Below, one piece after another: positions 3,189-17,073 of a stretch of 17,698 bases of DNA. Position 1 is the stretch's first letter. Each line of letters opens with the position of its first letter. The position numbers were made by a program, and so were the translations under genes. The stretch comes from Desulfurococcaceae archaeon (GTDB taxonomy: Archaea; Thermoproteota; Thermoprotei_A; Sulfolobales; Desulfurococcaceae). The stretch is taken from the NCBI GenBank assembly GCA_038888155.1, contig JAWAJB010000018.1:1-17698 (forward strand), written 5' to 3'. The notes beneath the pieces are model-generated. The model worked only from the letters and a program-made list of their open reading frames with translations, had not been told where the DNA came from and searched no databases.

Positions 3189-3219
3189 CTATCATCTAAA
3201 TCATTTTTTTGGCATGCTA

Positions 3220-3237
3220 TATTTATAGTTTGATTTT
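3220..3237 (-). promoter_or_regulatory. Putative TATA box and BRE for the ATPase gene at 3188
   Basis: The minus strand reads AAAATCAAACTATAAATA, about 32 nt upstream of the ATG, in a divergent intergenic region. Confidence 0.5.
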
Positions 3238-3283
3238 ATAGCTGACGATATTTATCCCTTCTCGAGAAAAAGGTATTGCATCT

Positions 3284-3297
3284 TAAAAAAGTTTAAA
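3284..3297 (+). promoter_or_regulatory. Putative BRE/TATA promoter for the permease
   Basis: TAAAAAAG-TTTAAA. The spacing favours the ATG at 3329 over 3311 as the start. Confidence 0.5.
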
Positions 3298-3328
3298 TTC
3301 AGATCTAATAATGAAAAAACCGATATTC

Positions 3329-4366
3329 ATGAGCGATGCTAAAGGGCTTAAAAGCAACAAAAGAAGCTCGGCTACAATAAGTAACACAAGTAGCGTCATG
3401 GCATCGGAGAAAGTGCCTGTCATGTCAACTTTAAAAAGCTTTGTGACGCACTATTCAACATGGTTTCTGCTGGCGGGATGCTATTTAGCGTTTGGCGCCG
3501 CATTCCCAATACTATTGACCGTTGAATCGTTCTGGAATATGCTTGTCCAGGGAACGACCGTAGTATTGCTGTCGATTGGAATGACGTTCGTTATGTTGAC
3601 AGGCGAGATAGATCTATCTGTGGCATCAGTTGCGGCTCTCTCGGCTCTCTTCGGTCTATATTGTATCACCGAGCTAAAGCTTCCAGGGTATATAGCTTTA
3701 CTATCAATAATACTGCTTGGCGCGATAGTTGGAGTGATCAACGGATTACTTGTTACGAGAATTAGAATACCATCGCTCGTGGCGACTGTTACCACCTGGT
3801 GGATGATCGCAGGAATAGTCCTTCTTTGGACGCAGGGTAGATCGCTAACTGGTTATGATGATTATTGGACTTATATAGGGATGGGAACTATAGGTCCCAT
3901 GAGGGTTGTGCTGTTATTCCTCATAGTGCTGATTATAATCGCGGTGATCATTGCGAGGCGGACGGTCACGGGCCTGAGAATTTACATAGTTGGCGGCAAT
4001 CCCGAGGCGGCCAAAAATATGGGAATTTCTGTCGAAAAAATTAAGACTATTGCATTTGTTCTATCCGGAATTTTCGCTGCTCTAGCCGGCTACACGCTTT
4101 CCTCAAGACTGGGGTTCGTATCTCCCGTTTTTGCAACGGAATGGCTCATGCCGGCCATAGCTGCACCTGTGATCTCGGGAGTGAGCTTAAGAGGAGGACG
4201 CGGCAACCTCATAAACGTTGTTGCTGGTGCATACTTGGTACAGCTAATAGTGTTGATAGTAAGAATTGGCGGCCTTGGAGGATACTTCTATCAGCTCGCA
4301 CAAGGATTACTGATATTCATCGCCGTTATCGTTGACACAATCAGGAGAAGAATTATGGGAGTGTAA
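3329..4366 (+). CDS. Sugar ABC transporter permease (RbsC/BPD_transp_2 family)
   Basis: Multi-TM protein with GMTFVMLTGEIDLSVAS, RIPSLVAT, the EAA loop GGNPEAAKNMGI and GVSLRGGRG. Start uncertain (3311, 3329 or 3398). Confidence 0.94.
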   Translation: MSDAKGLKSNKRSSATISNTSSVMASEKVPVMSTLKSFVTHYSTWFLLAGCYLAFGAAFPILLTVESFWNMLVQGTTVVLLSIGMTFVMLTGEIDLSVASVAALSALFGLYCITELKLPGYIALLSIILLGAIVGVINGLLVTRIRIPSLVATVTTWWMIAGIVLLWTQGRSLTGYDDYWTYIGMGTIGPMRVVLLFLIVLIIIAVIIARRTVTGLRIYIVGGNPEAAKNMGISVEKIKTIAFVLSGIFAALAGYTLSSRLGFVSPVFATEWLMPAIAAPVISGVSLRGGRGNLINVVAGAYLVQLIVLIVRIGGLGGYFYQLAQGLLIFIAVIVDTIRRRIMGV

Positions 4367-4420
4367 TCCGCGCGACCGAGATTATTCCCAGAAAAGTGAC
4401 TTTTTATGTAATCGCAAATC

Positions 4421-4427
4421 TTTTATA
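4421..4427 (+). promoter_or_regulatory. Putative TATA box for the binding-protein gene
   Basis: TTTTATA about 38 nt upstream of the ATG at 4465, preceded by CGCAAATC. Confidence 0.4.
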
Positions 4428-4464
4428 CAACTCGCGGGGAAGGATATAGCAAGGGCTTGAGATC

Positions 4465-5943
4465 ATGTCGGGAGAAAAAACTTCAAGGAGGACTGCGCTT
4501 AAAGTTGCTGCGGGCGTCATCGGTGGACTTGTTGTGGGTGGCGTAATAGGGTGGTTAAGCAAGCCTGTTGCTGAGGCCGTTAGAACAGTGACCTCGACGG
4601 TCACCACTACTGTAGCAGCCCCTGGCGCCGCAACCGTAACAGTTACTCAGCCCGCTACAACCATCAGGGAAACAGTCACGGTAACAGGCACTGCTATTCC
4701 ACCAACGGAGTTTAAGAATGGAGGCACAGTAACGCTAATAATGGGCTACCTTGGAGAATACTGGTGGTACACGTGCGCAAAGTACTTTGAGCTTGCAGTG
4801 AGCAAAATACCTGACCTACACGGAAGGCGTTGGAAGTTCGTTCTCGATACCGCTGAGGGATCAGATACGAGGCAATCAGAGATGATCGAGACATACGCGC
4901 AGAAAAGCGACTTATTGGTGGTTAACGCAGTTAGCATCGATGGAGTAAATACGGCTGTGAAAAAAGCAGAGGAGACGTATCACTGCCCGGTAATACCGGT
5001 AAAGGATATAATTTCCGGCAGGGGAAGATTCCAGATAGAGTTCTCTGACTTCTGGGCTTCTTCCTCGATGGTTGATGACGCCGTTGACTGGATGCGCAAG
5101 AAATACGGCACCGCTGAAGGAAAAATATTGCTCGCCCAAAACGGTGATTTATCATTTAGAGGATGGCTCTATAGATATATAGGATTTAGGACATGTCCGG
5201 AAAAGTATCCAGAAGTTGATTTCAAGGAATTCATTGGAGGAGTATCTCCAGAGGGCTGGGCTGATGCAGCTGACGCATTCATCTCCACCACAACACCAGA
5301 TGCAATAGTCTCGGCTAGCGATGGCCCCTACCTAGTGGGAACACTTGAGGCTCTTGCAAGATATGGCAAGCTATACTATGTAGGTAATCCTGAACATATA
5401 TTCGTTACGAGCATTGATGGAAAGCCGTCAGCTTCGATGTGGGTGAGGAAAGGCTATACGGACTCCGTTTACCCGCAGTGCCCGGACGCAATCTACTTCT
5501 CCACATGGGAAATAGCACGGCAATATATAATTAAGGATGCATCCTATCAGCAAGCACCGTATTCAATGCCGGAGATACCGCTACCGCTTGCATGGAGGCA
5601 GCCTAAAGGGACGTGGTGGGGTGGCGAAGACAAATACTTGGTAATTGATAAGGTGGATTGGTCCGAAACACCCTCTGGCCAAGCTCCAGGTTATAGAGTA
5701 ACGCCGGACAATGTTAACACATGGGAGATGTGGGGTAATCTGGTTACAGTTCTCCTAGGTAAAGAGGCTTTGCAGGATAAGGAGTTCCCAGCAAAAGGTA
5801 CACCACCTCCATGGAGTGCGCGGCTTGTTGAGGAGTACATTAGATGGTGGGAGAGCGTAACCGGCAAAGACTACAGGACCGCTGAGATCGAGAAGCCGCC
5901 TATACCGCTTGAGCAGCTAGAATGGCCTCCTAGGTGGAAGTAG
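4465..5943 (+). CDS. Sugar ABC transporter substrate-binding protein, Tat-exported and membrane-anchored (type I periplasmic binding fold, divergent)
   Basis: N-terminal SRRTALK twin-arginine motif, a hydrophobic helix and a Thr/Val-rich linker (TVTSTVTTTV...TVTVT). RbsB-like segments AEGSDTRQSEMIE, DLLVVNAVS and IFVTSIDG follow. Adjacent to the permease. Confidence 0.88.
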   Translation: MSGEKTSRRTALKVAAGVIGGLVVGGVIGWLSKPVAEAVRTVTSTVTTTVAAPGAATVTVTQPATTIRETVTVTGTAIPPTEFKNGGTVTLIMGYLGEYWWYTCAKYFELAVSKIPDLHGRRWKFVLDTAEGSDTRQSEMIETYAQKSDLLVVNAVSIDGVNTAVKKAEETYHCPVIPVKDIISGRGRFQIEFSDFWASSSMVDDAVDWMRKKYGTAEGKILLAQNGDLSFRGWLYRYIGFRTCPEKYPEVDFKEFIGGVSPEGWADAADAFISTTTPDAIVSASDGPYLVGTLEALARYGKLYYVGNPEHIFVTSIDGKPSASMWVRKGYTDSVYPQCPDAIYFSTWEIARQYIIKDASYQQAPYSMPEIPLPLAWRQPKGTWWGGEDKYLVIDKVDWSETPSGQAPGYRVTPDNVNTWEMWGNLVTVLLGKEALQDKEFPAKGTPPPWSARLVEEYIRWWESVTGKDYRTAEIEKPPIPLEQLEWPPRWK

Positions 5944-5969
5944 GAAAAACTTTTCACATCCTTATTTTT

Positions 5970-6797
5970 ATGAAACTAAGTCTGCTTATTTGGTTTGATA
6001 ACCTCAATTACTTGACTCCTTGGATTAAAAAGGCCAAGGATATTGGTTACGATGCTGTTGAGCTATTTCCTCAATACTTCTCTCTACGAGAGGTGAGCAT
6101 AGTCAAGAAGTTGTTAGATGAGCATAAACTTGAACACATAAGCTGCGTAATCCTTCCCGAGGAGGTTGATGTCGCGAGCTCCAATGATAGGACCCGGAGA
6201 AATGGAGTGATTTTCTTAGAACGTTGCATTGATATTACGGTTAAATTGGGCGGAGAACTGGTAACGGGTGTAATATATGCTCCATGGGGTAAAGTGGAGA
6301 GCAAATCTCCGAAAGAAGATTGGTATCGAAGCACCGCCTCTCTAAAACAGGTCTGTAAATATGCTTCCCAATTCGGCGTTAAGTTGGCTATAGAGCCTAT
6401 AAATCATTACCGGACATACCTGGTCAACACCTGCGAGGATGCTGTTAAGTTCTTGGAGGATGTGGGAGAAAGCAACTTGGGAGTTCATTTGGATACATAT
6501 CATATGAATATTGAGGAAAATAATTTTTATGAACCAGTCATAGCTGCTGGGAAGAGACTTTACCATGTTCACTGCTCTGAAAGTAACAGAGGAATGCTGG
6601 GAACAGGGCATGTAAATTGGAGCGAATTCTTTCAAGCGTTAAATGAAGTGGATTATCAAGGTTATCTTGGATTTGAATACCATACCCCAAGTATCATGAG
6701 AGTTAGCTGGAAAAGAGTTGCCCCATGCATGGAAGAAGTCGCTGTAAGAAGTTTACATTTCATGAAAGAAATGTGTAGTAGGTATATGAGGAAATGA
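5970..6797 (+). CDS. Sugar phosphate isomerase/epimerase, D-psicose/D-tagatose 3-epimerase-like (xylose isomerase-like TIM barrel)
   Basis: IGYDAVE, metal ligands in AIEPIN, HLDTYHMNIEE, HVHCSESNRGMLGTGHVNW and GFEY. The ATG at 5970 (MKLSLLIW) fits the family N-terminus better than the GTG at 5934, which overlaps the previous gene. Confidence 0.92.
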   Translation: MKLSLLIWFDNLNYLTPWIKKAKDIGYDAVELFPQYFSLREVSIVKKLLDEHKLEHISCVILPEEVDVASSNDRTRRNGVIFLERCIDITVKLGGELVTGVIYAPWGKVESKSPKEDWYRSTASLKQVCKYASQFGVKLAIEPINHYRTYLVNTCEDAVKFLEDVGESNLGVHLDTYHMNIEENNFYEPVIAAGKRLYHVHCSESNRGMLGTGHVNWSEFFQALNEVDYQGYLGFEYHTPSIMRVSWKRVAPCMEEVAVRSLHFMKEMCSRYMRK

Positions 6798-6818
6798 AGT
6801 ATGATTTATTGATACTTC

Positions 6819-7808
6819 CTAGCATTTGCCTAGAAGCCTTTTCACGGCAGCAATTATTTTCTTATAATCAACCATGTATTGCCTCTCGAGTGATGGTGAA
6901 AATGGAACTGGAAGCGGAGGAGAGTTAATTCTGATTATCGGAGCCTTGAGCAGTCCAAATGCATACTCAGAAATATATGCTGCAATTTCTGCTGAGATGC
7001 CTCCGGTTTTTACGCTATCATCAGCTATTACCAGCCTACCCGTCTTTTCCAAGGATCTTACAATAGTGTCGTAATCCATCGGTTGTATTGTCATAGGATC
7101 AATCACCTCCACGCTAATACCCTCTTTTGAAAGTTCCTCCGCCGCTTTTAGCGCCTCTGGAACAGTTCTGGAGATCGCGACTAATGTTACATCTTCGCCT
7201 TCACGCTTAATATCGCATTTTCCTATGGGTATAAGATATTCACGCTCGGGCACAGGTCCTCGTGTTCTGTAAAGCATCGCCGCTTCCACGAATAATACTG
7301 GGTCATCGTCTCTTATGGCTGACTTTAAAAGTCCTTTAGCATCATATGGAGTTGAGGGGGCAACTATTTTAATTCCAGGAGATTGTAGAAAGCATGAAAT
7401 GAGTACTTGACTGTGTTGTGCTGCTGACACTCTTCCAAGAGCGTACTCGGTTCGAATTACGAGCGGTAATCTTATTTGCCCACCGCTATAAAACCTCATT
7501 TTAGCGGCATGAGTCATTATCATATCCATTGCCAGAGTTATGAAGTCCATGTACATGATCTCGGCCACGGGACGCAACCCCATCAAAGCTGCTCCAATTG
7601 CTGTTCCAACTATTGCTGCCTCTGAAATCGGCGTGTCTCTTATGCGCTCCGGACCGAACTCGTCAATGAGGTCCTTCGTAACCTTATACACACTATAGAC
7701 CGCAACGTCCTCGCCGAAGACTATAACTCTATCATCTCTTCTCATTTCTTCGATTAGTGCCTCTCTCAATGCTTCAGCGTAAGACATCTCTCTAACGCCA
7801 CTCTCCAT
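6819..7808 (-). CDS. TPP-dependent 2-oxoacid/acetoin dehydrogenase E1 beta subunit
   Basis: GEDVA, RIRDTPISEAAIVG, GLRPVAEIMYMDF, AAQHSQ, PSTPYDAKGLL and SLEKTGRLV. The ATG at 7808 overlaps the end of alpha and has GGAGGGTG upstream. Confidence 0.95.
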   Translation of the reverse strand: MESGVREMSYAEALREALIEEMRRDDRVIVFGEDVAVYSVYKVTKDLIDEFGPERIRDTPISEAAIVGTAIGAALMGLRPVAEIMYMDFITLAMDMIMTHAAKMRFYSGGQIRLPLVIRTEYALGRVSAAQHSQVLISCFLQSPGIKIVAPSTPYDAKGLLKSAIRDDDPVLFVEAAMLYRTRGPVPEREYLIPIGKCDIKREGEDVTLVAISRTVPEALKAAEELSKEGISVEVIDPMTIQPMDYDTIVRSLEKTGRLVIADDSVKTGGISAEIAAYISEYAFGLLKAPIIRINSPPLPVPFSPSLERQYMVDYKKIIAAVKRLLGKC

Positions 7809-8859
7809 ACCTAGCTTCACCCTCCACATAAAGCAGATCCCACAGCTCATTAAAGTCTAGCACCGGTGCTTTTTCAGCCTCTTCGATCGCCTGCTCAAGT
7901 TCTTTTTCAATGCTTTCCTCCATACGTCTAATAGTCTCATCATCTAAGATCCCTCGAATCTTCAACTTATTCATGAATCTCTCAATAGGATCTTTCCTCC
8001 TCCATTCCTCAACCTCTTCTTTTGGCCGGTACCAGCCGGTGTCGTATATCCCATGCCCTTTCATCCTATAAGTTCGGCATTCTATAAAAGCTGGGCCATT
8101 CCCGGATCTTATATGCTCAACCGCCTTTCTAGCGGCTGAATAGACCGATATCACGTCATTTGCGTCAGAAACTAGGAAAGACTTTATTCCATAAGCAGCG
8201 CCTCTTGAAGCTATACTCTCTCCAGCGCAGACTCTGTAAAATGGTGTTGAGAGTGCATAGTAATTATTTTCACATACAAACAATATGGGAAGCCTCCAAA
8301 CTGCTGCGAGATTTAACCCCTCATTAAATGCTCCGGTATTCACAGCGCCATCTCCAAAGAAAACTACAGCAATTCTTTTTTCTTTTCTATATTGCAAAGC
8401 TAGCCCGATGCCGCATGCAATAGGTATACCGCTTCCAACAATTGCCGTTACAACAGGAATATTATGCATAATACTCAGGGCGGCGTGCATGGAGCCTCCA
8501 AGACCTTTACATGTTCCAGTAACCTTCCCGAATAGCTCAGCCATCAAATCCTTGAAAGGTACTCCCCTCACTATAGCATGCCCATGATTTCTATGAGTGG
8601 ATATTATGGGGTCATCAGGTCGTAGTGCAGAAATTATGCCAACGGCGACAGCTTCCATTCCAAAATAAGGATGACATAAACCTATCAGCTTCCCCTCGAC
8701 CAGAAAAAGTCTTTCAACTGCCTCCTCAAATTTTCTAATGCGTAACATTTTCTCAAACATTTGAAGCAACTGTTCACGCGTCAATCCGAGTTTATCATAC
8801 TCTTCAGTGGATACTTCACCAACGACCTCTGGAGGTTTATATGGCACGCCATATGCCAC
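7792..8859 (-). CDS. TPP-dependent 2-oxoacid/acetoin dehydrogenase E1 alpha subunit
   Basis: THRNHGH, GLGGSMH, the TPP motif FFGDGA...CENN and TYRMKGH. GTG start with GAGGGGGTG upstream. Confidence 0.95.
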   Translation of the reverse strand: MAYGVPYKPPEVVGEVSTEEYDKLGLTREQLLQMFEKMLRIRKFEEAVERLFLVEGKLIGLCHPYFGMEAVAVGIISALRPDDPIISTHRNHGHAIVRGVPFKDLMAELFGKVTGTCKGLGGSMHAALSIMHNIPVVTAIVGSGIPIACGIGLALQYRKEKRIAVVFFGDGAVNTGAFNEGLNLAAVWRLPILFVCENNYYALSTPFYRVCAGESIASRGAAYGIKSFLVSDANDVISVYSAARKAVEHIRSGNGPAFIECRTYRMKGHGIYDTGWYRPKEEVEEWRRKDPIERFMNKLKIRGILDDETIRRMEESIEKELEQAIEEAEKAPVLDFNELWDLLYVEGEARYGEWR

Positions 8860-8881
8860 GGGAACGCCACCCCCTCATTAT

Positions 8882-9346
8882 TCAACTTTTAAACCTGTCT
8901 TTAAACTCCACCCTACTGACACTTATAGTAGTAGCATCACATAGTCTGAATGTGGCCCATACGAACCTCATCGGTATAATACCGGTGTTATAGGTTACAT
9001 GGTAGCTCCCAGCCGGAATATATACAGCGTCGCCCTCTTTCACTGGAAATCTCTTATCATTTATTTGCATTTCGCCCCTACCCTGAATGTAGAAATAGAC
9101 TTCTTCTAAGTCCGGATGAGCATGCCCAGTAGTCCTTCCCCAGGGATATACTATTGTGTGTCCAAAGCTTAATCTCCTAGATGGAGAATTCTCTGGGATA
9201 ATCAAGTAATAGGTCTCACGCAGTATCCTGATTTCCTCAAGCCCAAGGACTTTCCTAAAAGAATTTTCGCTCGAATCATGTTCCAATTCATGAATGTTTA
9301 CGATGAAATTGTGCTGCATCTTTTTATAGCGTTGAGAAGATTTCAT
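8882..9346 (-). CDS. Cupin domain-containing protein (metal-binding)
   Basis: Cupin motif 1 TTGHAHPDLEEVYFYIQGRG and motif 2 GDAVYIPAGSYHVTYN. The start is probably 9346 or 9319 rather than 9415, judged from the paralogue at 12781. Confidence 0.88.
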   Translation of the reverse strand: MKSSQRYKKMQHNFIVNIHELEHDSSENSFRKVLGLEEIRILRETYYLIIPENSPSRRLSFGHTIVYPWGRTTGHAHPDLEEVYFYIQGRGEMQINDKRFPVKEGDAVYIPAGSYHVTYNTGIIPMRFVWATFRLCDATTISVSRVEFKDRFKS

Positions 9347-9420
9347 GCAGCATTTACTGCAAGTTAAGCCTAATAAGGTTATCGATTGATCACCGTAGGT
9401 TATCTTGCTCACCATTCATA

Positions 9421-9440
9421 ACTAATATTTAATAATTAGT
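9421..9440 (+). promoter_or_regulatory. Putative TATA box (TTTAATA) inside an ACTAAT-N8-ATTAGT palindrome
   Basis: TTTAATA at 9428..9434, about 24 nt before the ATG at 9458, flanked by a 6-bp inverted repeat. Confidence 0.4.
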
Positions 9441-9457
9441 CCCGAGCACGGAGAAAT

Positions 9458-9724
9458 ATGCCCTATATAGCTCAAGAAGAGCGCAAGGAACTTGATCCAT
9501 TTGTTGATAGGCTCATAGAAGTTCTGAAAAAATCCTCTCCCGATAGGCTTGATGCCAGGCTAAACTACGTGGTCTATAAGATGCTTGTAAGACTATACGG
9601 CGATAAATATTTTGATTATAACCGCGCGATGGGAGTATTGAATTGCATTGCTCATGAATTTTATAGAAGAAGAGTAGCCACCTATGAGGATCGAAAAATC
9701 CAAGAAACGGGAGATATAATCTAA
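9458..9724 (+). CDS. Small conserved hypothetical protein (resembles the DUF6899 family)
   Basis: The pattern MPYI...LNY...GVL..EFYRRRVATYEDRKIQETGD matches a small helical family recalled as DUF6899. The family name is from memory and needs an HMM check. Confidence 0.75.
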   Translation: MPYIAQEERKELDPFVDRLIEVLKKSSPDRLDARLNYVVYKMLVRLYGDKYFDYNRAMGVLNCIAHEFYRRRVATYEDRKIQETGDII

Positions 9725-9743
9725 GCTAATCGGAGGGATTATT

Positions 9744-9977
9744 CTGAAAGAAATTAAAATGCCAAGATTTGATCCATTAATGGAAGAAGGAAGAATAGTC
9801 CAGTGGATAAAGACTGAAGGAGAACAAATAGCGAAAGGTGAGAAGATCGCGATAATAGAGGGCGAAAAAACAACCTTTGAGCTTGAGGCGCCCTATGAAG
9901 GAAAGCTGGTAAAAATTCTCAAAAAAGCGGGAGATCTAGCGAAAGTTGGAGAGACAATTGCAATATTGGAAGAATAA
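9744..9977 (+). CDS. Stand-alone lipoyl (biotin/lipoyl attachment) domain protein
   Basis: KEIKMPRFDPLMEEGRIVQWIKTEGEQIAKGEKIAIIEGEKTTFELEAPYEGKL...VGETIAIL, with the lipoyl Lys in EGEKT. GGAGGG at 9732..9737 suggests a CTG start at 9744, and the first ATG is at 9759. Confidence 0.9.
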   Translation: MKEIKMPRFDPLMEEGRIVQWIKTEGEQIAKGEKIAIIEGEKTTFELEAPYEGKLVKILKKAGDLAKVGETIAILEE

Positions 9978-9990
9978 TTTTTCCCCTTTT
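9978..9990 (+). terminator. Possible archaeal oligo-T terminator or attenuator between the lipoyl and E2 catalytic genes
   Basis: TTTTTCCCCTTTT immediately after the TAA stop. Confidence 0.3.
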
Positions 9991-10019
9991 CAACATATAT
10001 TTTTGAGGAGAAGCGAAAA

Positions 10020-10682
10020 ATGTTTTCTAGAAAAGTGCCGTTTGCGGGAGTGAGGAAAGCGATCACTCAGAGACTTAGCCCCGGCTTCCATCAAGCTCTA
10101 CCTGTGGCATTGATGATGGAGTTTAAAGCGGATCCGCTTCTAGATCATAGAAAGCAGAGAGGCAGGCCATCAATCACCTCATATGCTGTTAAAGCAGCAG
10201 CATTAGCGCTTAAAAAGTACCCAGATATGAATGTCACGTTTGAAGAAGGGGAGCTCATTTACCATGATGAAGTTAACATCGCTGTTGGAGTACATACTCC
10301 TAGGGGCTTAAGAGCGCCCGTGATCAGAAATGTAGACAAGATAACTTTGAATGAGCTCACAAGAATCATTGACGAATTTGCGGAGAAAGGTGAGAGGGGA
10401 GAAATAACATTAGCTGATCAGGAAGGCCACAGCTTCACGGTGACAAATCTCGGCATGACCGGTGTAACTCACTTCACACCAATAATCAATCCACCAGACT
10501 GCTCGATACTTGGCTTGGGCGCGATAATCGCAAAGCCAATAGTAGTAGACAATAAATTAGAGTTAGGTAAAGTGGGCCACCTAACATTAGTTTTCGACCA
10601 CAGAGTTATTGATGGAATGCCTGCCTCAATTTTTCTAGGCGAAATCAAGAGATTATTAGAGAATCCAGTCGAGCTGGAATGA
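10020..10682 (+). CDS. Dihydrolipoamide acyltransferase (E2) catalytic domain only
   Basis: VPFAGVRKAI, VNIAVGVHTPRGLRAPVIRN, SFTVTNLG, FTPIINPP and the catalytic DHRVIDG. It has its own GAGGAG ribosome site at 10005..10010 and no lipoyl or E1/E3-binding domain. Confidence 0.93.
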   Translation: MFSRKVPFAGVRKAITQRLSPGFHQALPVALMMEFKADPLLDHRKQRGRPSITSYAVKAAALALKKYPDMNVTFEEGELIYHDEVNIAVGVHTPRGLRAPVIRNVDKITLNELTRIIDEFAEKGERGEITLADQEGHSFTVTNLGMTGVTHFTPIINPPDCSILGLGAIIAKPIVVDNKLELGKVGHLTLVFDHRVIDGMPASIFLGEIKRLLENPVELE

Positions 10683-10741
10683 TATGAGATTAAGCAAGCT
10701 TTATTGGTCACCTAATTCCAGCTTTTCTAGGTGATCTATTA

Positions 10742-12283
10742 TTGGAGGAATGTGTTGTAGGCGTTGATATAGGGACCTCCGCCTGCAAGGTTTTAGCGAT
10801 ATCACGCGATCTAGAAATACTAAGCGAGAAATCCGGAAAATATCCAACATATGTGCCTAAGCCAGGCTGGACCGAGCAAAATCCTGAAGATTGGTGGGCT
10901 GTTGTTGGAAGTTTATTGGCTGACATTTCTAAAGAACTACGTGAAAAGGGCTATGAAATCGCAGGAATAGGGCTTACCGGCCAGATGCATGGCCTTGTTG
11001 TACTTGATGATAAAGGCAACGTCTTAAGACCATGCATCATGTGGAATGATCAAAGGAATTATAAGCAATGCCTCTATGCGATTGAGAAGCTCGGCGGACT
11101 TGAAAACGTCATAAAGCTGATAAATAATGGTATAATGCCGGGATTTACTATAGGGAAAATACTATGGGTTATGGAGAACGAGCAGGAGATTTTCGCCAAA
11201 GCGAGTAAGCTTCTCAATCCTAAGGATTACATAAGGTTCAAGCTAACAGGCAATTATATTACTGATGTAAGTGATGCGTCGGGAACTCATATGTTCGACG
11301 TCAAGAACCGCAGATGGTGCGACGAGATTCTAGAAACATTCAATATCCCCGAATACATGTTGCCAGACAAAGTAGTTGAGTCCAGCGAAATAACAGGTTA
11401 CGTTAGCGATAATGTCTCAAAAGACATTGGTTTGATAGGTGAGGTGGCGGTAGTTGGCGGTGGTGGTGATGCAGTTGTACAACTTGCCGCGTCGGGATCA
11501 ACTGATCCGACTAAGCTTTGTATCTTAATAGGCACCGCGGGGGTCGTCGGGTTAACCGTAGATAAATATTTTGAAAACAGCGGAGGGATATTGCAATTCT
11601 ATTGCAACGTGATCCCGGGAAGATGGATAGTTTTTGGATGCACACTTGCAGCAGGGGGATCGCTGGAATGGTTTAGACAAGTGTTTGCCGATTCCGAAGA
11701 AGCCGTAGCAAAATGGTGTAATAAATCCGTCTTCGACATATTGTCCGAGGAAGCTGAAAAGGCTCCCATAGGCTCCGGAGGCGTATTCTTCCTACCATAT
11801 CTAACAGGCGAGCGGGCGCCGCACACGGACCCGAACGCTCGAGGAGTTTTCATAGGCCTTAACCTGATGACGAGAAAGCCTGAGGTTATTAGAAGTGTCT
11901 TAGAGGGCGTGGCTTACAGCTTAAGAAGTGTCGGAGATATATTAAGAATGAAGTCGGGCAGCGATATAAGAGAGGTATATCTCTCTGGTGGTGGAGCTGC
12001 AAGTAATGTTTGGAGGCAAATATTTGCAGATGTCTTTGGAGTGAGAGTGAAAACATTAAAATACAGTGAAAAAGGCGGTTCATTGGGAGCAGCTATATTG
12101 GCTGGAGTTGGAATTAGATTCTGGAAGAAATTCGAAGATGCTGTAAGGCTCCTAGAAATAGTTTATGAAAACGAACATCATCACGAAAATCATGAAAAAT
12201 ATGAAAAACTTTTCAGAATATATGAGAAGCTTTATCCGATACTAAAACCTGCCTTTCGATTAATCTCGGAAGAAGGTCAGTAA
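10742..12283 (+). CDS. xylB: FGGY-family carbohydrate kinase, xylulokinase-like
   Basis: GVDIGTS, EQNPEDWW, TGQMHG, WNDQR, PKDYIRFKLTG, DVSDASGT, FLPYLTGERAP, LEGVAY and SGGGA. TTG start. The true substrate is not established. Confidence 0.92.
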   Translation: MEECVVGVDIGTSACKVLAISRDLEILSEKSGKYPTYVPKPGWTEQNPEDWWAVVGSLLADISKELREKGYEIAGIGLTGQMHGLVVLDDKGNVLRPCIMWNDQRNYKQCLYAIEKLGGLENVIKLINNGIMPGFTIGKILWVMENEQEIFAKASKLLNPKDYIRFKLTGNYITDVSDASGTHMFDVKNRRWCDEILETFNIPEYMLPDKVVESSEITGYVSDNVSKDIGLIGEVAVVGGGGDAVVQLAASGSTDPTKLCILIGTAGVVGLTVDKYFENSGGILQFYCNVIPGRWIVFGCTLAAGGSLEWFRQVFADSEEAVAKWCNKSVFDILSEEAEKAPIGSGGVFFLPYLTGERAPHTDPNARGVFIGLNLMTRKPEVIRSVLEGVAYSLRSVGDILRMKSGSDIREVYLSGGGAASNVWRQIFADVFGVRVKTLKYSEKGGSLGAAILAGVGIRFWKKFEDAVRLLEIVYENEHHHENHEKYEKLFRIYEKLYPILKPAFRLISEEGQ

Positions 12284-12444
12284 ATGAAATGACATATAGT
12301 GCCGAGTAAACCTTACTTTTTCCATTTCTGCATTATTCTTAACTAGAAGCTAGAAGTTAGAATAGAGATCCAGAAGGACCAAACGAAATATTATATTAAG
12401 TTATCTGCTACGTAATTTTCTCATTCTCCCTACCTTTAAGAATA

Positions 12445-12648
12445 TTAGGGCTTGCTCAGACTAATGCTGAATGCGCACTTGATTACTGTTTTCGCGCATC
12501 CTACGCTTAATACCATCCATAGGAAGGCTCTCTGGATGGCCGAGGTCAATTTCAAGACCATCGTAACCAATCCTTTGAAGCTTATCGAAGATCAACAGAT
12601 CTTTTCCACGAATTTTGTAATCCATAACCATGCCCGAACACCATGCAT
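12445..12648 (-). pseudogene. Frameshifted, truncated remnant of a second ketose 3-epimerase-like gene
   Basis: The minus strand reads MHGVRAWLWITKFVEK, then a shift to DLLIFDKLQRIGYDGLEIDLGHPESLPMDGIKRRMRENS, then a shift to IKCAFSISLSKP*. This is collinear with the N-terminus of 5970..6797 (IGYDAVE). Confidence 0.7.
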
Positions 12649-12748
12649 TATCGCGAAGATTATGAAGATCATCCAAAGATATATTTCTTTATCTTTATTT
12701 TCTGTCACCCAATCAACCACGCGCACTTATGACATAGAAATGTTAAAA

Positions 12749-12770
12749 TTATGCTCGTTTAAAGGCATAA
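12749..12770 (+). promoter_or_regulatory. Putative TATA-like box within a TTATGC-N10-GCATAA palindrome upstream of the cupin-ALDH-transaldolase genes
   Basis: TTTAAA at 12758..12763, flanked by a 6-bp inverted repeat just before the ATG at 12781. Confidence 0.35.
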
Positions 12771-12780
12771 CTGAAGTGAA

Positions 12781-13179
12781 ATGGGTCGAGAGGCAAGAAA
12801 AGAATATAGCTTGGTGAACATTAATGAAGTTGAGCCAGATACTTGTGATCGATCCCTAAGATATCATACGAAGGATAGGAAGGGTCAGGTTCTTCGAGAT
12901 ACCTATAGGCTGATTGAGCCGGGAAAGACTCCGTCGCAAAGGCTTACTCTAGGATATACAATAGTGTATCCTGAAGGAAGGACTACAGGGCATTCGCATG
13001 AAGATATGGAGGAGGTATATTTCATAGTCCAAGGGCGTGGAATAATGGAGATAGATAATGAGCGCTTTCCGATAAAAGAGGGCGACGCATTCTACGTCCC
13101 ACCAGGGAAATATCATGTAACCTACAATACGGGAATATTACCGCTAATAATCGTATGGGTTACTGGTAAAGTTGGCTAG
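12781..13179 (+). CDS. Cupin domain-containing protein (metal-binding), paralogue of 8882..9346
   Basis: TTGHSHEDMEEVYFIVQGRG and GDAFYVPPGKYHVTYNTG. Collinear with the other cupin. Confidence 0.92.
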   Translation: MGREARKEYSLVNINEVEPDTCDRSLRYHTKDRKGQVLRDTYRLIEPGKTPSQRLTLGYTIVYPEGRTTGHSHEDMEEVYFIVQGRGIMEIDNERFPIKEGDAFYVPPGKYHVTYNTGILPLIIVWVTGKVG

Positions 13180-13202
13180 TATTATTAGGGGGTTGATGAA
13201 GC

Positions 13203-14648
13203 ATGGAGCGGTATTTGATGATAATTGATGGAGAGAAAGTAGAATCCTCCAGCAGAGAGTACTTAGATGTCATAAACCCCGCTACCGAGGAAGCTTTTGC
13301 CCAGATTCCGAAAGCAACGGCGGAGGATGTTGATAAAGCGGTTCGAGCAGCGTATAGAGCCTTTAAAGAGTGGTCTCAAACCTCGCTAGAAGAAAGGAGA
13401 AAGCTGCTTTACAAGGCTGCAGAGATAGTTGAGAAGCGTGCAGATGAAATAGGTAGAGCATTAACGCGTGAGCAGGGTAAACCGTTGAAGCAGGCGGCCG
13501 ACGAGCTTAGAAATGCGGCGCATGTTTTGAGATACTTTGCTGATGAAATCTTTAGAGTTTACGGCGAGATAATACCGCTACCTCAGAAAGATTATGAGAG
13601 TATAGTGATATGGCAGCCTATCGGAGTCGTTGCCGCAATCACTCCATGGAATTATCCAGTACAGTTGCTCTCTTGGAAAGTTGGCGCCGCCCTCGCAGCT
13701 GGATGCACGCTGGTTGCTAAGCCGCCAGTCTATACATCGATATCGCCAATAATGTTCATAGAATGCTTAGTTGATGCTGGCGTACCAAAGGGTGTTGTAA
13801 ATATTGTGACTGGGCCGGGTAGAACTGTGGGAGAGGCTTTGATAACTCATCCACTGGTTCGAAAGGTAAGCTTCACTGGGTCAACGGATATCGGTAAGCA
13901 TATCATGAAGCTTTGTGCTGATGGCATTAAGCGTGTTACCTTAGAACTTGGAGGCCAAACACCGATGATAGTTTTTGCTGATGCTGATTTAGATAAAGCT
14001 GTTAAAGGCGCGGTCAGAAGATCGTTCAGAAACATGGGCCAAATATGTAACGCCATAAACAGAATATATGTTGAAAGAAAGATCTTCGATGAATTTGTCG
14101 AGAGATTTGTTGAGGAAACCAAGAAGCTTAGAATAGGAAATCCGCTGGAAGAACCAGATGTAGACTTGGGCCCGATGTGCAATAAGGAGACATTAGATAA
14201 AGTTATAGAACATGTTGAGGACGCCGTGAAAAAGGGTGGAAAGATACTTTGCGGAGGCAAAAGACCCGATGGAGAGAAGTTTAGGAAGGGATACTGGTAT
14301 GAGCCGACGATAATAGTGAACGTGAATCACGATATGCTGATAATGAAGGAGGAGACATTCGGGCCCGCTAAGCCCGTTATGCCCTTTGATAACATTGACC
14401 AAGTGATAGAGTGGGCCAATTCGACCCGCTACGGCCTAGCAGCATATGTTTACACCAACAACATAAATACCGCTAGAAAAGTGGCGCTGAGACTTGAAGC
14501 CGGAAACATAGGAATAAACAACGTTGATGTGGCGACGATCGAGGCGCCATATCCCGGCTGGAAAGAGAGCGGGCTCGGATGCGATCTCGGCCGAGAAGGC
14601 TTAAAGCATTACATGGAGATAAAGCACGTCAAAATGTTTTATGGATAA
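13203..14648 (+). CDS. NAD(P)-dependent aldehyde dehydrogenase (SSADH/GabD-like fold, substrate unknown)
   Basis: ITPWNYP, FTGST, catalytic Glu in LELGG, catalytic Cys in GQICNA, EETFGP and YGLAAY. Confidence 0.96.
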   Translation: MERYLMIIDGEKVESSSREYLDVINPATEEAFAQIPKATAEDVDKAVRAAYRAFKEWSQTSLEERRKLLYKAAEIVEKRADEIGRALTREQGKPLKQAADELRNAAHVLRYFADEIFRVYGEIIPLPQKDYESIVIWQPIGVVAAITPWNYPVQLLSWKVGAALAAGCTLVAKPPVYTSISPIMFIECLVDAGVPKGVVNIVTGPGRTVGEALITHPLVRKVSFTGSTDIGKHIMKLCADGIKRVTLELGGQTPMIVFADADLDKAVKGAVRRSFRNMGQICNAINRIYVERKIFDEFVERFVEETKKLRIGNPLEEPDVDLGPMCNKETLDKVIEHVEDAVKKGGKILCGGKRPDGEKFRKGYWYEPTIIVNVNHDMLIMKEETFGPAKPVMPFDNIDQVIEWANSTRYGLAAYVYTNNINTARKVALRLEAGNIGINNVDVATIEAPYPGWKESGLGCDLGREGLKHYMEIKHVKMFYG

Positions 14649-14697
14649 ACAATACTAAAATATACCTTAGTTTTCATCATGATGGTGATTCGGCGAG

Positions 14698-15876
14698 ATG
14701 TGCAAAAGCGTCTCAAAGGCTGAGGTAAAGTTGAGACTGGATTCATCGCAGCTTGAGGAACTGAAGAAGCTGAATCCCGAGTTTGAGATCTGGTGGGATG
14801 GTCATCCCGGATACTTCCGAAAATTTTTAGCGGAACTCCTCGAGAAGGGTTACCCAAGAGAAGAGGTCGAAAAAATAAGGAAATGGATGTCTCATATCGA
14901 GGGTGGAACATTCTTTTTTGATGGATGCACAACGAACCCTCCATTAAACCTCCAGTTTCTTCAAAGCTCGCCGGAAGTTGTGAGCGCCATTAAGGAGAAA
15001 TATGCCAATTTGCTGAAAAGAAGCTGGTGGTATGGATACTGGATCACCGGGAAGCTGGGCATGGATAAGTTCCTTTCAAACTACTATAGAAGGGGTAGGA
15101 GATACGGCTTCGTATGCATGCAAGTTGACCCACACTACCCCCATGACACGGAAATAATGAAACTTCAGGCCATGGAGCTTGCAAGAGCTGCTCCAAACGC
15201 CATGATAAAGATCCCGGCTACAAAAGCCGGAATAGAGGTAATAAGATATCTAACAAGCTTGGGCATATCCACCAACGCTACTTCATGCTTCTGCGTCCCG
15301 CAGGTCGCTATGGTCGCTCAGGCTGTTAAGGAGGGGTACGAGGAAGGAGTTCAAAAAGGAGTAGATTACAGCGGATGGCGTTCTGTCATTACTATGATGA
15401 TTGGCAGGTGGGAAGCATCCACCGAGTGGGATGCTGAGGCCAATGAAATGGGCGAGATCATCACCGAGGAGGATCGCAGATACTTTGGATTATTAATGGT
15501 CAGGAAGGCTGTAGAAGTCGTGAAGAGCATGAATGCCCCAACAAAGGTTCTTGTGTGCTCCACGAGAAAGGGCCCAGGAGAGCGCTACTTGCACATGGAA
15601 GGGCTAGCCGGGCTGCCAATAATAGTCACGATGAATAAGGAAGCAATCGAATGGGCCTTAACGCTTCCACTCCGTGATGAATCCGGAAATATTAAGATGA
15701 TGAAAGAACTTCCACAGGATAAAGTTAACAGGTTAATGAAGTTTGAATGGGTTAGGAAGAGTATAGATCCAAGGGGCTTAACAATAGATGAAATCCATCA
15801 GTCAAGTGCGCAGAAAAAGAACCTAACAGAGTTCGCAAAAGCTTTGGAGGAGATCCAGAAGATATTTACAATCTAG
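14698..15876 (+). CDS. Transaldolase/fructose-6-phosphate aldolase family protein, long divergent type
   Basis: WWDG (catalytic Asp position), GCTTNP, Schiff-base Lys in MIKIPATKAG, GISTNAT, IGR and CSTR. Alternative TTG start at 14731. Confidence 0.88.
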   Translation: MCKSVSKAEVKLRLDSSQLEELKKLNPEFEIWWDGHPGYFRKFLAELLEKGYPREEVEKIRKWMSHIEGGTFFFDGCTTNPPLNLQFLQSSPEVVSAIKEKYANLLKRSWWYGYWITGKLGMDKFLSNYYRRGRRYGFVCMQVDPHYPHDTEIMKLQAMELARAAPNAMIKIPATKAGIEVIRYLTSLGISTNATSCFCVPQVAMVAQAVKEGYEEGVQKGVDYSGWRSVITMMIGRWEASTEWDAEANEMGEIITEEDRRYFGLLMVRKAVEVVKSMNAPTKVLVCSTRKGPGERYLHMEGLAGLPIIVTMNKEAIEWALTLPLRDESGNIKMMKELPQDKVNRLMKFEWVRKSIDPRGLTIDEIHQSSAQKKNLTEFAKALEEIQKIFTI

Positions 15877-15896
15877 CCAACAAACTAATACTTCTT

Positions 15897-16907
15897 CTAC
15901 CTCTTTCTTTCCAGAACTTCCGGATTTAGAATCCATAAAGGCCTTTCTCCGTGTAGCATTCTTAGAGCCTCTTCAACGGCTAGGCGATCCATGAGATAGC
16001 AACTTCTGCTGACACCGTAAGCCACATGTGGTGTTATTATAACGTTCTCGAACTGGAATATTGGGTGATTTGGTGGAACCGGCTCGGGGTCAAAGACATC
16101 TAGCGCAGCACCCTTGACTATCCCCTCCTTGAGCGCCCAGATGAGTGCATCAACATCTATTATCTCTCCCCTAGCTGTGTTAATCAGATACACCCCCCTT
16201 TTCATGACCTTAAACTTCTCGAGGTTCAGCAGCTTTCTAGTTTCATTGGTTAGAGGAGCATGTATTGTTATAACATCTGATTGGGCAAGTACTTCTTCGA
16301 TAGTGTTCGCCGCCAGCGCGCCACTCAGCCTAATAAATTCTCTAGAAACATATGGATCGTAAACCATGATTTCTTTAGGCTTGAACGGCTTAATCATCTC
16401 TAGGACTCTGAATCCTATTTCCCCGAGACCTATGAATCCTATTGTTTTATCCATTAATGTGTCGCCTAAGAAGTGCTCGAGATTGCTTGAAGATGGCCAT
16501 TCTCCACTTTTGAGGCGCTGGAAGGTTTGTGGGACCTTCCTCATTATTGAGAGCATCAGGGCCACCGTATGTTCTGCGACAGCATCTTTTAGAACGTACG
16601 AGGGCAGTCTAGATACCATGACGCCGGCCTCTGTTGCATCCTTCAGGTCTATGTTATCGTAGCCGACACCCCACCTGACTATCCCCTTAAGCTTTGGCAG
16701 CCTGCTGAATAGCTCGCGATTGAATATCGGCTGAGACCCGGCTATTATCACGTCGGCGTCCCTTAGCTTCCTCGCGATCTCCTCGACGGGGTCCGTCTTT
16801 TTGGCAAAAGCCCTCGTGAGAGTCACATTATGTCTCTCGAGCAACTGCGTCACGTCAGCTGCAACTCCGAAAAGCTTCGCATTTACGACGGTCAATACCT
16901 TACTCAT
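15897..16907 (-). CDS. D-isomer-specific 2-hydroxyacid dehydrogenase (PGDH/glyoxylate reductase-like)
   Basis: GVGYDNID, AVAEH, Rossmann motif GLGEIG, HAPLT, INTARG, LDVFDPEP and TPHVA. The catalytic Arg, Glu and His are present. Confidence 0.95.
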   Translation of the reverse strand: MSKVLTVVNAKLFGVAADVTQLLERHNVTLTRAFAKKTDPVEEIARKLRDADVIIAGSQPIFNRELFSRLPKLKGIVRWGVGYDNIDLKDATEAGVMVSRLPSYVLKDAVAEHTVALMLSIMRKVPQTFQRLKSGEWPSSSNLEHFLGDTLMDKTIGFIGLGEIGFRVLEMIKPFKPKEIMVYDPYVSREFIRLSGALAANTIEEVLAQSDVITIHAPLTNETRKLLNLEKFKVMKRGVYLINTARGEIIDVDALIWALKEGIVKGAALDVFDPEPVPPNHPIFQFENVIITPHVAYGVSRSCYLMDRLAVEEALRMLHGERPLWILNPEVLERKR

Positions 16908-17073
16908 ACCGCCTGTTCAGCAATTCCATAAGACGAGGCATGAGATAAATATTATCCATCCACAATTCGAAGCGCTTGGAAGCTGATGCTTTGATGTTTT
17001 CACGATAGGTCGTGATCGTCTCACAGAAATAATTTTATCCAAGATCGTTAATGCGTATGTGGGCATTGGTCTG

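Follow-up and report, generated by a model that had tools for sequence, protein, structure and literature searches.

A composite archaeal sugar-utilisation locus hints at a link between sugar breakdown and a lipoate-dependent E1/E2 acyl-CoA step

Lipoate-dependent E1/E2 systems act on pyruvate, 2-oxoglutarate, branched-chain oxo acids and acetoin. The Bacillus acetoin dehydrogenase system consists of AcoA, AcoB, AcoC and AcoL, and the cleavage of acetoin is itself the cleavage of a ketol. A putative acetoin dehydrogenase complex has reportedly been noted in Sulfolobus. Here we analyze a 17,698-nt stretch of DNA from a hot-spring Desulfurococcaceae archaeon (assembly GCA_038888155.1, contig JAWAJB010000018.1), hereafter the window, in which E1 and E2 genes are interleaved with genes for sugar import and conversion. 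Calling of open reading frames (ORFs) together with Pfam and NCBIfam profile scans gave 18 sizeable genes. An initial annotation of 13.6 kb of the window had proposed a single sugar or sugar-acid pathway comprising a CUT2 importer, a ketose 3-epimerase-like enzyme, an FGGY kinase, an atypical transaldolase, an aldehyde dehydrogenase (ALDH), a D-2-hydroxyacid dehydrogenase, two cupins, E1 alpha and beta, a free lipoyl domain and an E2 core. Every member of this list is found in the scans, and the gene map bears out its order, with one cupin (cupin A) heading the E1 genes and the kinase downstream of, and co-directional with, the lipoyl and E2 genes. The genes belong to two modules that are inherited separately, and the locus hints at an undescribed link between sugar breakdown and acyl-CoA.

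On the minus strand, the predicted thiamine diphosphate-dependent E1 alpha (7792–8859; E1_dh, 267.9 bits) keeps an intact GDG-x26-NN motif at residue 169. It is followed by E1 beta (6819–7850), which matches Transket_pyr with 136.9 bits and Transketolase_C with 133.5 bits. The start of E1 beta is probably the Met 21 codons inward, near nt 7787, which would remove the overlap with E1 alpha. On the plus strand lies a free lipoyl-carrier protein of 72 aa (9759–9977) with a candidate lipoyl-lysine in EGEKTT at the hairpin position. In NCBIfam, 10 models of E2 and carboxylase proteins match it through their lipoyl parts, the best being the lipoyl part of acetoin dehydrogenase E2 (64.2 bits). Downstream on the same strand is the E2 acyltransferase catalytic core of 220 aa (10020–10682; 2-oxoacid_dh, 217.3 bits), which covers profile positions 5–230 of 232 and has an intact DHRVIDG motif at residue 193. 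This ORF contains neither a lipoyl domain nor a peripheral-subunit-binding domain, and the latter has no space elsewhere, because only 14 codons and one stop separate the lipoyl and E2-core ORFs, which share one frame. The same split recurs in metagenome relatives (L126, L130 and L164, with ORFs of 79–80 aa and 220–244 aa, and L132–L134) and in genomes of the same order (L120, L121 and L123), and is therefore taken as a real arrangement. A sequencing error as the source of the intervening stop was considered and rejected, since the split recurs in relatives and in two of them, L120 and L121, the ORFs are in different frames.

The set resembles acetoin dehydrogenase in combining a heterotetramer-type E1 alpha and beta, which carries the thiamine-diphosphate motif, with a lipoyl-carrier protein and an acyltransferase E2. 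Unlike acetoin dehydrogenase, its E2 is split into the lipoyl protein and a core without binding domain, no E3 accompanies the cluster, and its E1 alpha forms part of a clade of its own and lies among importer, epimerase, cupin and xylulokinase genes. A likeness to the pyruvate dehydrogenase (PDH) E1 of alpha-proteobacteria and mitochondria is also evident: TIGR03182 and PRK09212 are the best-scoring models, and among solved relatives of E1 alpha the human PDH E1 alpha scores highest at 194 bits, followed by the Thermus 2-oxo acid dehydrogenase (187), the human branched-chain E1 (154) and Geobacillus PDH (134). Nevertheless, E1 alpha stays under the PDH equivalog cut-offs (346.3 vs 393.85 for TIGR03182; 264.7 vs 411.35 for TIGR03181), and the alpha-proteobacterial reference falls outside the window clade and has another gene context.

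The position of E1 alpha was examined in quick tree searches carrying SH-aLRT support only. One tree of 97 rows holds E1 alpha ORFs of at least 280 aa drawn from 100 labelled E1 alpha genes; duplicates of the window (L001, L085, L105 and L125) and short loci from genomes of the order (L086–L104) had been left out beforehand. Two further trees, of 51 and 42 rows, contain hand-picked references. Bacillus sp. N5-665 offers three paralogs, in the orders E3-E1 alpha-E1 beta-E2; a 374-aa E1 alpha followed by E1 beta-E2-E3; and a third E1 alpha-E1 beta-E2-E3. Two of these we take to be the bkd and pdh types from the operon orders of B. subtilis, and the remaining one to be the aco type by elimination. 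The window E1 alpha is 45% identical to the aco-type copy, 35% to the bkd type and 30% to the pdh type. The pdh and bkd copies fall as outgroup with a support of 99–100. The superclade that contains the window E1 alpha includes the aco-type copy, a plasmid-borne alpha-proteobacterial pdhA (46% identical), Rhizobium and Thermus plasmid genes, and all relatives from metagenomes and from the order. Within it, the window E1 alpha lies in a subclade with a support of 98 that holds none of the reference sequences. By this comparison E1 alpha appears to belong to an acetoin-type or y-type PDH superclade away from Bacillus PdhA and BkdAA. The possibility raised in the initial annotation, that E1 might prove an ordinary pyruvate or branched-chain enzyme, is thus not borne out by the trees as far as the Bacillus types are concerned.

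The sugar genes around E1/E2 begin with a CUT2-type importer. Its permease (3311–4366, plus strand; BPD_transp_2, 138 bits) scores 138–144 bits on the NCBIfam models of ribose, arabinose and autoinducer-2 permeases, all under their cut-offs. The solute-binding protein (4465–5943, plus strand) passes Peripla_BP_4 with 49.9 bits against a cut-off of 35.1; no NCBIfam model matched it, and no solved relative was found at E ≤ 0.001. While permease and binding protein pass the Pfam cut-offs, the ATPase is represented by two single-domain genes, not one fused gene. Next on the plus strand is a TIM barrel of the xylose-isomerase-like, ketose 3-epimerase-like kind (5934–6797; AP_endonuc_2). Among solved structures it comes closest to 3-epimerases of ketoses, allulose, tagatose and L-ribulose (E 9e-44 to 1e-29), and its best NCBIfam model is D-psicose 3-epimerase, at 179.6 bits under the cut-off of 300; the barrel thus resembles a working ketose 3-epimerase while scoring below the level for formal family membership. 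Downstream of the E2 core, the FGGY kinase (10742–12283, plus strand) passes the xylulokinase equivalog TIGR01312 with 492.8 bits against 380.25, and the closest solved structure is that of E. coli xylulose kinase (2itm, E 1.5e-84). The specificity of FGGY kinases drifts, and any substrate named for this one is therefore a prediction. A D-2-hydroxyacid dehydrogenase (15897–16907, minus strand; 2-Hacid_dh_C, 190.6 bits) scores 250 bits on the phosphoglycerate dehydrogenase model and 231 bits on the glyoxylate reductase model, both under the cut-offs. A protein of 88 aa matching DUF6899 (9458–9724, plus strand; PF21840, 85 bits) sits between cupin A and the lipoyl gene, at the head of the lipoyl-E2-kinase operon. 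As for the archaeal Weimberg and Dahms routes, no Pfam family of sugar dehydrogenases or sugar-acid dehydratases is present among the 18 window ORFs scanned.

This order is inherited as a block. A search of metagenome contigs with E1 alpha gave five contigs at 82–89% identity. The three longer ones (L126, L130 and L164) share the gene order permease, binding protein, epimerase, E1 beta, E1 alpha, cupin A, DUF6899, lipoyl, E2 core, kinase and hydroxyacid dehydrogenase at protein identities of about 85% (68–91%), and L129 and L137 are partial contigs keeping parts of it; the nucleotide identity of these close relatives to the window is 78%. In the former three, the hydroxyacid dehydrogenase (87% identity) adjoins the kinase and is convergent with the kinase operon. 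DUF6899 is kept in L126, L129, L130 and L164 (85–90% identity) and in no other E1 locus examined. The interleaving of sugar and dehydrogenase genes pointed out in the initial annotation is therefore inherited as a whole, and these genes are referred to as module 1. Two further contigs, L127 and L128, with E1 alpha at 86% and 84% identity, carry another FGGY kinase (30–31%). The neighbours in L127 are GFO/IDH/MocA, SDR and DeoC-type aldolase genes, and those in L128 are E1 alpha and beta, a lipoyl protein (60%), an E2 core (50%) and an epimerase-like gene (51%). The same E1 is thus joined to differing sugar front ends.

Cupin A (8882–9415, minus strand; Cupin_2; likely start Met24 or Met33) is closely coupled to E1 alpha. 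The two genes lie 22 nt apart in the window and 57 nt apart in L129, and in L130 they overlap by 29 nt. In L126 (6173–7735) cupin A and E1 alpha form one uninterrupted frame of 520 codons with a conserved Lys-rich linker, and in L164 (5528–6586) they share one frame with the same linker until a frameshift; L131 has a cupin fragment ahead of E1 alpha. Cupin B (12781–13179, plus strand; Cupin_2), a predicted metal-binding cupin, is a paralog with 53% identity, and the two are members of one subfamily whose ligand positions are invariably His, His, Glu and His. In cupin B these residues, H71, H73, E77 and H112, are invariant in 13 sequences. Searches against solved structures by sequence gave weak matches (best E 2.7e-9), and the Atlas search returned generic cupin clusters only. 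The predicted model of cupin B, of moderate confidence (pLDDT 74.5), matches plu4264 best (TM 0.58), with Thermococcus phosphomannose isomerases (TM 0.56–0.57) and archaeal cupin-type phosphoglucose isomerases (TM 0.55–0.56) among the top matches, which is a generic cupin result.

The association of this E1 with sugar genes extends beyond the close relatives. Neighbours were labelled from our own ORF calls by blastp against a small reference set, and FGGY kinase, ribulose-phosphate epimerase (Rpe), class II aldolase/epimerase, Fae-Hps, epimerase-like, transaldolase-like, TktN and RpiB genes within 7 ORFs were counted as sugar labels. The window clade makes up 46 of the 97 rows (support 98), and 24 of the 46 have at least one sugar label. 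In the adjacent clade of 39 rows, a Liv-type binding protein occurs in 19 and sugar labels in none. No shuffle out of 500 clustered the labels equally on one clade, a figure inflated by relatedness, since related contigs are not independent. For instance, L133 and L134 (E1 alpha 70–72%) have two Zn-dependent alcohol dehydrogenases, a class II aldolase, E1 alpha and beta, a free lipoyl protein and an E2 core, with ORF families 55–57 upstream, of which families 56 and 57 in L134 are a canonical transaldolase and a full-length transketolase. L141, L142 and L144 (55–56%) have an MttB-family gene, an aldo-keto reductase, E1 alpha and beta, and a fused E2, together with two FGGY kinases in L142 and L144 and one in L141, which is shorter. 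Rpe is found in L149, L157, L165 and L166 (about 50–53%), Fae-Hps in L147, L152, L153 and L156 (about 52–53%), and epimerase-like, GatZ-like, PfkB and FGGY kinase genes in L151 (53%). Altogether, an FGGY gene is present in 15 of 79 E1 alpha metagenome loci, and Zn-dependent alcohol dehydrogenase genes (family 3) are present in 22 of 80 loci. On the Rhizobium plasmid, glucitol phosphotransferase system genes, a sugar-binding regulator and an oxidoreductase precede E1 alpha, E1 beta and E2. Similarly, the Thermus plasmid carries a sugar-binding TrmB-type regulator, E1 alpha and beta, a free lipoyl protein and a TRAP transporter, with an FGGY kinase 7 kb away. Clade members thus sit in sugar clusters of archaea, Chloroflexota-like metagenome lineages, and Rhizobium and Thermus plasmids. 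The proposed tie between the E1/E2 step and sugar genes is supported by this repeated placement among sugar and pentose-phosphate clusters, and the context of the clade points to an undescribed substrate or at least an undescribed physiological coupling.

The remaining genes do not share this history. A 3.6-kb block (12289–15909) consists of about 490 nt without a recognised gene, followed by cupin B, the ALDH and the transaldolase-like gene. In a blastn comparison of window 10001–17698 with L126, L130 and L164, homology ends at 12283–12288 and restarts at 15910–15916, so this block, module 2, was either inserted here or deleted there. The trio occurs at identities of 90, 88 and 86% in L005, from Candidatus Wolframiiraptor allenii, as well as in Candidatus Geocrenenecus (L006), and the closest relatives of module 2 are Wolframiiraptoraceae. 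The three Wolframiiraptoraceae genomes with the trio (L005, L006 and L007) have no E1 alpha match (0/3) and all have a full-length transketolase (3/3). The 13.6 kb is therefore not one conserved gene set as originally conceived: module 2 is absent in the closest relatives and present in genomes without an E1 alpha match. In Caldatribacterium the trio occurs with an ABC transporter, an FGGY kinase (50% identity) and in places a split transketolase. The Thermoanaerobacterales copies belong to long operons that also encode a sigma-54 activator, a pair of split transketolases, RpiB, a PHP protein, a class II fructose-bisphosphate aldolase and a DHDPS-family gene.

The ALDH (13203–14648, plus strand; Aldedh, 597 bits) is predicted to be NAD(P)-dependent. 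It matches 43 NCBIfam models, none of the 25 listed reaching its cut-off; the best is the SSADH subfamily, at 515 vs 646. The transaldolase-like protein of 392 aa (14698–15876, plus strand; TAL_FSA, 97 bits) falls under the cut-offs of all NCBIfam transaldolase models, and its match to solved transaldolases is limited to residues 119–254 with E 6e-10 or weaker. In transaldolases the catalytic residues are the Schiff-base lysine, an Asp and a Glu (E96 of E. coli TalB). Like transaldolase and fructose-6-phosphate aldolase, the window protein is of the TAL_FSA fold family and has a candidate Schiff-base lysine, K171, which aligns with the lysine in the MIKVPAT motif of a solved enzyme. K171, D34, N80, N193, T195, R237 and R290 are invariant in 16 sequences. 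Unlike canonical transaldolase, it has an invariant Gln142 that aligns with the Glu in the "slevsp" stretch of a solved transaldolase, an invariant Met234 in the SFFISR stretch, where fructose-6-phosphate aldolase has Tyr, and about 70 extra N-terminal residues. The subfamily, with lengths of about 390 aa, has 589 relatives at E ≤ 0.001; none has a solved structure, and no characterised member was found in the literature. In the 79 of 80 loci where ORF calling recovered the gene, a split transketolase lies within 2 ORFs in 27, RpiB is present at 19 loci and a class II fructose-bisphosphate aldolase at 25. E1 alpha lies within 2 ORFs in 8, mostly of Actinomycetota, and E1 beta at a contig edge in 2 more. 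Cupin B always adjoins the ALDH, and the pair is found in 11 of the 79 loci.

Two described systems are close to parts of this arrangement. Module 2, with an isomerase-like protein, a transaldolase-family enzyme and an aldehyde dehydrogenase, is like the sulfofructose transaldolase pathway (sulfo-TAL, or sulfo-SFT), whose cluster keeps a metal-binding cupin of unassigned role that binds a ketose (PMC11968277). Unlike in sulfo-TAL, the window protein belongs to a divergent subfamily that matches the solved sulfofructose transaldolase at E 1.5e-4, the cupins match Cupin_2 and other cupin models rather than DUF4867 in the Pfam scans, and no GH31 glycosidase is present among the window ORFs scanned with Pfam. 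The second system is Wolframiiraptor gerlachensis, for which a preference for xylose, a xylose isomerase, several xylulokinases and a transketolase are described (PMC9246946); the accessible text of that paper makes no mention of transaldolase or E1/E2 genes. The xylulokinase-type kinase and sugar importer of the window are like the isomerase-xylulokinase route into the pentose phosphate pathway proposed there. Unlike that route, the window has no xylose isomerase, and no transketolase was found in the genome bin assigned to its contig (G000), whereas the three Wolframiiraptoraceae genomes have it at full length. A literature search, with the Wolframiiraptor and Calditenuis supplements, possibly with gene tables, outside its scope, found no description of a sugar-linked E1/E2, of the cupin-ALDH-transaldolase trio or of DUF6899. 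No published pathway onto which the cluster maps was found there either, in keeping with the novelty first claimed for it.

The window can be read as a composite sugar-utilisation island of two separately inherited modules, of which module 1 would work as a unit including the E1/E2 acyl-CoA step; we consider this reading, taken whole, about evenly balanced between right and wrong. The chemistry of each step is what we infer from the gene identities. A monosaccharide would be imported by the CUT2-type importer, isomerised or epimerised to a ketose and phosphorylated by the xylulokinase-type kinase. The acetoin/PDH-type E1 would use thiamine diphosphate to pass an acyl unit from a sugar-derived carbonyl compound onto the free lipoyl protein, the E2 core would hand it to CoA, and an E3 encoded elsewhere would reoxidise the lipoyl group. 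Two E3 candidates (Pyr_redox_dim; contigs C55 and C1) and four lipoate-ligase-like genes are present elsewhere in G000. For the substrate of E1, our first choice, a conservative and tentative one, is a 2-oxo acid, for instance pyruvate or hydroxypyruvate, which the D-2-hydroxyacid dehydrogenase could supply; ranked second, and unlikely, is a ketol such as a ketose or ketose phosphate made by a cupin isomerase, with other compounds as a third option. Module 2 would be a mobile add-on resembling transaldolase-dependent sugar salvage, in which an isomerase forms a ketose, glyceraldehyde 3-phosphate receives the C1–C3 part of this ketose, and the aldehyde that remains is oxidised. In G000, neither transketolase (two E1 alpha genes match it weakly) nor phosphoketolase nor ribulose-phosphate epimerase was found above cut-off, and xylulose 5-phosphate as a product would thus be without its usual outlets. 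No transketolase was found in 13 genomes of the same family either (0/13). Even with pyruvate as the substrate, the anatomy would be new: a dedicated split, E3-less complex of a thermophilic archaeon, a mobile cupin-ALDH-transaldolase trio, and a transaldolase subfamily of about 390 aa with Gln for the catalytic Glu.

The strongest competing explanation, which we nevertheless find doubtful, is that E1/E2 is a general pyruvate or acetoin dehydrogenase placed inside a sugar island by chance or through loose co-regulation with carbon catabolism. Several observations lean in that direction and weigh against the composite-island reading. E1 beta passes a single subfamily model, PRK09212 (354.2 vs 321), which is named for PDH. 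The solved structure nearest to E1 alpha is that of its human PDH counterpart, and the alpha-proteobacterial gene annotated pdhA is as near to E1 alpha as the acetoin type (46% vs 45%). The Zn-dependent alcohol dehydrogenases that flank many relatives are also found in acetoin and butanediol clusters, and the Fae-Hps and Rpe neighbours are genes of central metabolism, so that part of the neighbourhood pattern fits a general PDH. Relatives from the order have E1 alpha, E1 beta, lipoyl, E2 and in places E3 with no sugar genes detected nearby; L116–L119 show no sugar label despite up to 10 kb of flank on each side, and 22 of the 46 window-clade rows, many of them short contigs, have none. No E3 gene is present among the window ORFs scanned with Pfam. 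In L129 (3–1695), the kinase directly follows DUF6899 after a 62-nt gap, with no lipoyl or E2-core gene between, so these two genes are dispensable at the locus. The close relatives may be one genus, and their synteny is then weak evidence of function. Cupin A and E1 alpha are in frame in just two contigs, one of them frameshifted; the protein collection returned the same single fused cupin-E1 alpha cluster among 154 and 414 candidates, and the 520-codon frame of L126 is not present in it as a fused protein, which makes the fusion moderate evidence.

The bin itself adds to these doubts. G000 amounts to 2.4 Mb, compared with 0.9–1.5 Mb in 16 genomes of the same genus, with a contamination of 6.4% and a contig GC content of 35–53%. 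By tetranucleotides and GC, the window contig (C18) ranks 26th from the centroid among the 58 contigs of at least 8 kb, in a bin that is heterogeneous. Among the same-genus genomes, the transaldolase-like gene gave one weak match in 16, and E1 alpha was found in one of two at 45% identity, the window type not being found. The contig may thus represent either an island that was acquired or a mistake of binning, and the argument from missing outlets of xylulose 5-phosphate may not apply.

Against a general dehydrogenase stand the interleaved order on two divergent operons, kept in five contigs, and cupin A, which abuts, overlaps or is in frame with E1 alpha. The same E1 occurs with other sugar front ends in L127 and L128, and the sugar labels concentrate on one clade, with the inflation by relatedness stated above. 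Furthermore, G000 already carries a second, canonical E1 alpha-E1 beta-E2 set on contig C34, whose E2 is fused and has the binding domain.

A special case of the composite-island reading is the second model of the initial annotation, in which E1 would act on a ketose or ketose phosphate by cleaving its ketol. The simplest such substrate would be xylulose 5-phosphate formed by the kinase. The cupin would supply the ketose, and the products would be an aldose phosphate and a lipoyl-bound acyl group, either glycolyl or, in the case of a 1-deoxy ketose, acetyl. We regard this model as unlikely. The placement of E1 alpha beside the acetoin-type paralog and apart from Bacillus PdhA and BkdAA would suit it, as acetoin cleavage is already ketol cleavage. 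The neighbours converge on xylulose 5-phosphate through xylulokinase-type kinases, Rpe and class II aldolase/epimerase, and the cupin coupled to E1 alpha resembles cupin-type sugar-phosphate isomerases. The transaldolase-like family lies beside either split transketolase or E1 alpha and beta, and transketolase, phosphoketolase and Rpe were not found in G000. However, the model has no precedent and leaves the fate of glycolyl-CoA unexplained. Fourteen positions separate the sugar clade from the Liv clade, and none of them adds a basic residue able to hold phosphate. L134 and loci of Actinomycetota carry transketolase and E1 alpha and beta together. In the order sample of 121 genomes, assuming that both searches drew the same set, as shared identifiers suggest, transketolase is present in 11 of 29 genomes with E1 alpha vs 27 of 91 without, which is no anticorrelation, and in 8 of 9 genomes whose E1 alpha is in, or matches at the level of, the window clade. 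A replacement of transketolase by E1 is weakened by these counts, since the genomes with a window-clade E1 mostly carry transketolase too.

If a sugar ketol were nevertheless the substrate, the locus would represent a new entry from sugars to acyl-CoA and an alternative to transketolase and phosphoketolase, with the C2 unit kept as a thioester and not passed to an acceptor sugar as by transketolase. A speculative and rather unlikely extension is that E1 alpha and beta, the lipoyl protein and the E2 core represent an undescribed clade of "oxidative ketolases" that convert a cupin-fed sugar ketol to acyl-CoA and a shorter aldose phosphate.

Improbable, and the weakest of the alternatives, is the other original model of all genes in one linear pathway, from aldol or transaldol cleavage through aldehyde, 2-hydroxy acid and 2-oxo acid to acyl-CoA (for instance, a 6-deoxy-ketose through lactaldehyde, lactate and pyruvate to acetyl-CoA): every enzyme class is present, the ALDH scores 413 bits on the lactaldehyde dehydrogenase model, under its cut-off, no transketolase is needed, which fits G000, and cupin, transaldolase-family enzyme and ALDH mirror the sulfofructose transaldolase pathway (PMC11968277), but the kinase is left without a role, the transaldolase-like protein is no nearer the solved sulfofructose transaldolase than other transaldolases, the trio exists in three genomes without an E1 alpha match, and the model cannot be the core logic of the E1/E2 step because its ALDH sits in the separately inherited module 2, missing with cupin B and the transaldolase-like gene from the closest relatives that keep E1/E2, kinase and hydroxyacid dehydrogenase.

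The assembly of the locus is sound. Window 3140–17252 is bridged by a single DNA contig of 14,113 bases in run X3, and 3143–14389 by single DNA contigs in runs X5 and X9; a mis-assembly or chimera was rejected because DNA contigs of three studies span the junctions. A metagenome contig (L125) carries the same locus with protein identities of 96–100%. Contigs from an RNA library (X14) cover parts of the binding protein and epimerase-like genes, the permease, ALDH, transaldolase-like, hydroxyacid dehydrogenase and thermosome genes, and one spans 4451–6258, from the binding protein into the epimerase-like gene. None lies on 6491–8260 or 8851–9440, although such contigs cannot rank genes and this hole proves nothing.

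A few observations concern module 2 and its relatives. The only ORF in the stretch at 12289–12780, of 121 codons, matches no family and lacks relatives among the loci retrieved. A TIM-barrel remnant on its minus strand was considered and is unsupported, as blastx against all locus ORFs matched the ORF itself only. At nt 12489, a one-base deletion is seen in contigs of runs X5 and X9. In Actinomycetota (L046 and L071), genes for an MttB-family methyltransferase and a B12-binding corrinoid protein lie by the transaldolase-like and E1 alpha and beta genes. The MttB-family gene of L141, L142 and L144 lies between the FGGY kinases, upstream of E1 alpha and beta. Anaerolineae loci with the transaldolase-like gene, L084 among those of this theme, have a dimethylglycine-oxidase-like FAD/GCV_T fusion, a choline-kinase-like gene and an aminotransferase. 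These MttB, corrinoid, dimethylglycine-oxidase-like and choline-kinase-like neighbours suggest that part of the transaldolase-like family is linked to methylated amines.

At the right end of the window, the summed contig depth climbs from about 15–40 to 111–312 in three DNA runs at 17111–17698, the last 590 bases, inside the gene of an Hvo_1808-family surface protein. This stretch is therefore repeated, or common to other abundant organisms.

At the left end, a divergent thermosome (group II chaperonin) paralog (641–2371, minus strand; Cpn60_TCP1, 477 bits) lies between the two single-domain ATPase genes. The first ATPase (3–620, plus strand; ABC_tran), a single nucleotide-binding domain truncated by the contig start, is 52% identical to the second (2439–3188, minus strand), which matches the N-terminal half of XylG/AraG-type sugar ATPases. 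This ATPase-thermosome-ATPase part is also kept in L130 and L137, where an equivalent of the first ATPase and a thermosome paralog of 76% identity occupy the same positions. Window 1–209 and 2838–3040 form inverted repeats, with 127 nt at 100% and 75 nt at 96% identity, which are the 5′ parts of the two ATPase genes, and the contig begins inside the repeat. The thermosome segment may invert, or the assemblies may be ambiguous, because contigs of runs X5 and X14 join the repeat arms on opposite strands. The thermosome paralog shares at most 43% identity with any thermosome found in the relatives searched. Within the cupin-ALDH-transaldolase cluster of Candidatus Geocrenenecus, a thermosome-like gene (33%) is found at 11439–13019 of L006. 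G000 has three thermosome genes, and most relatives have two.

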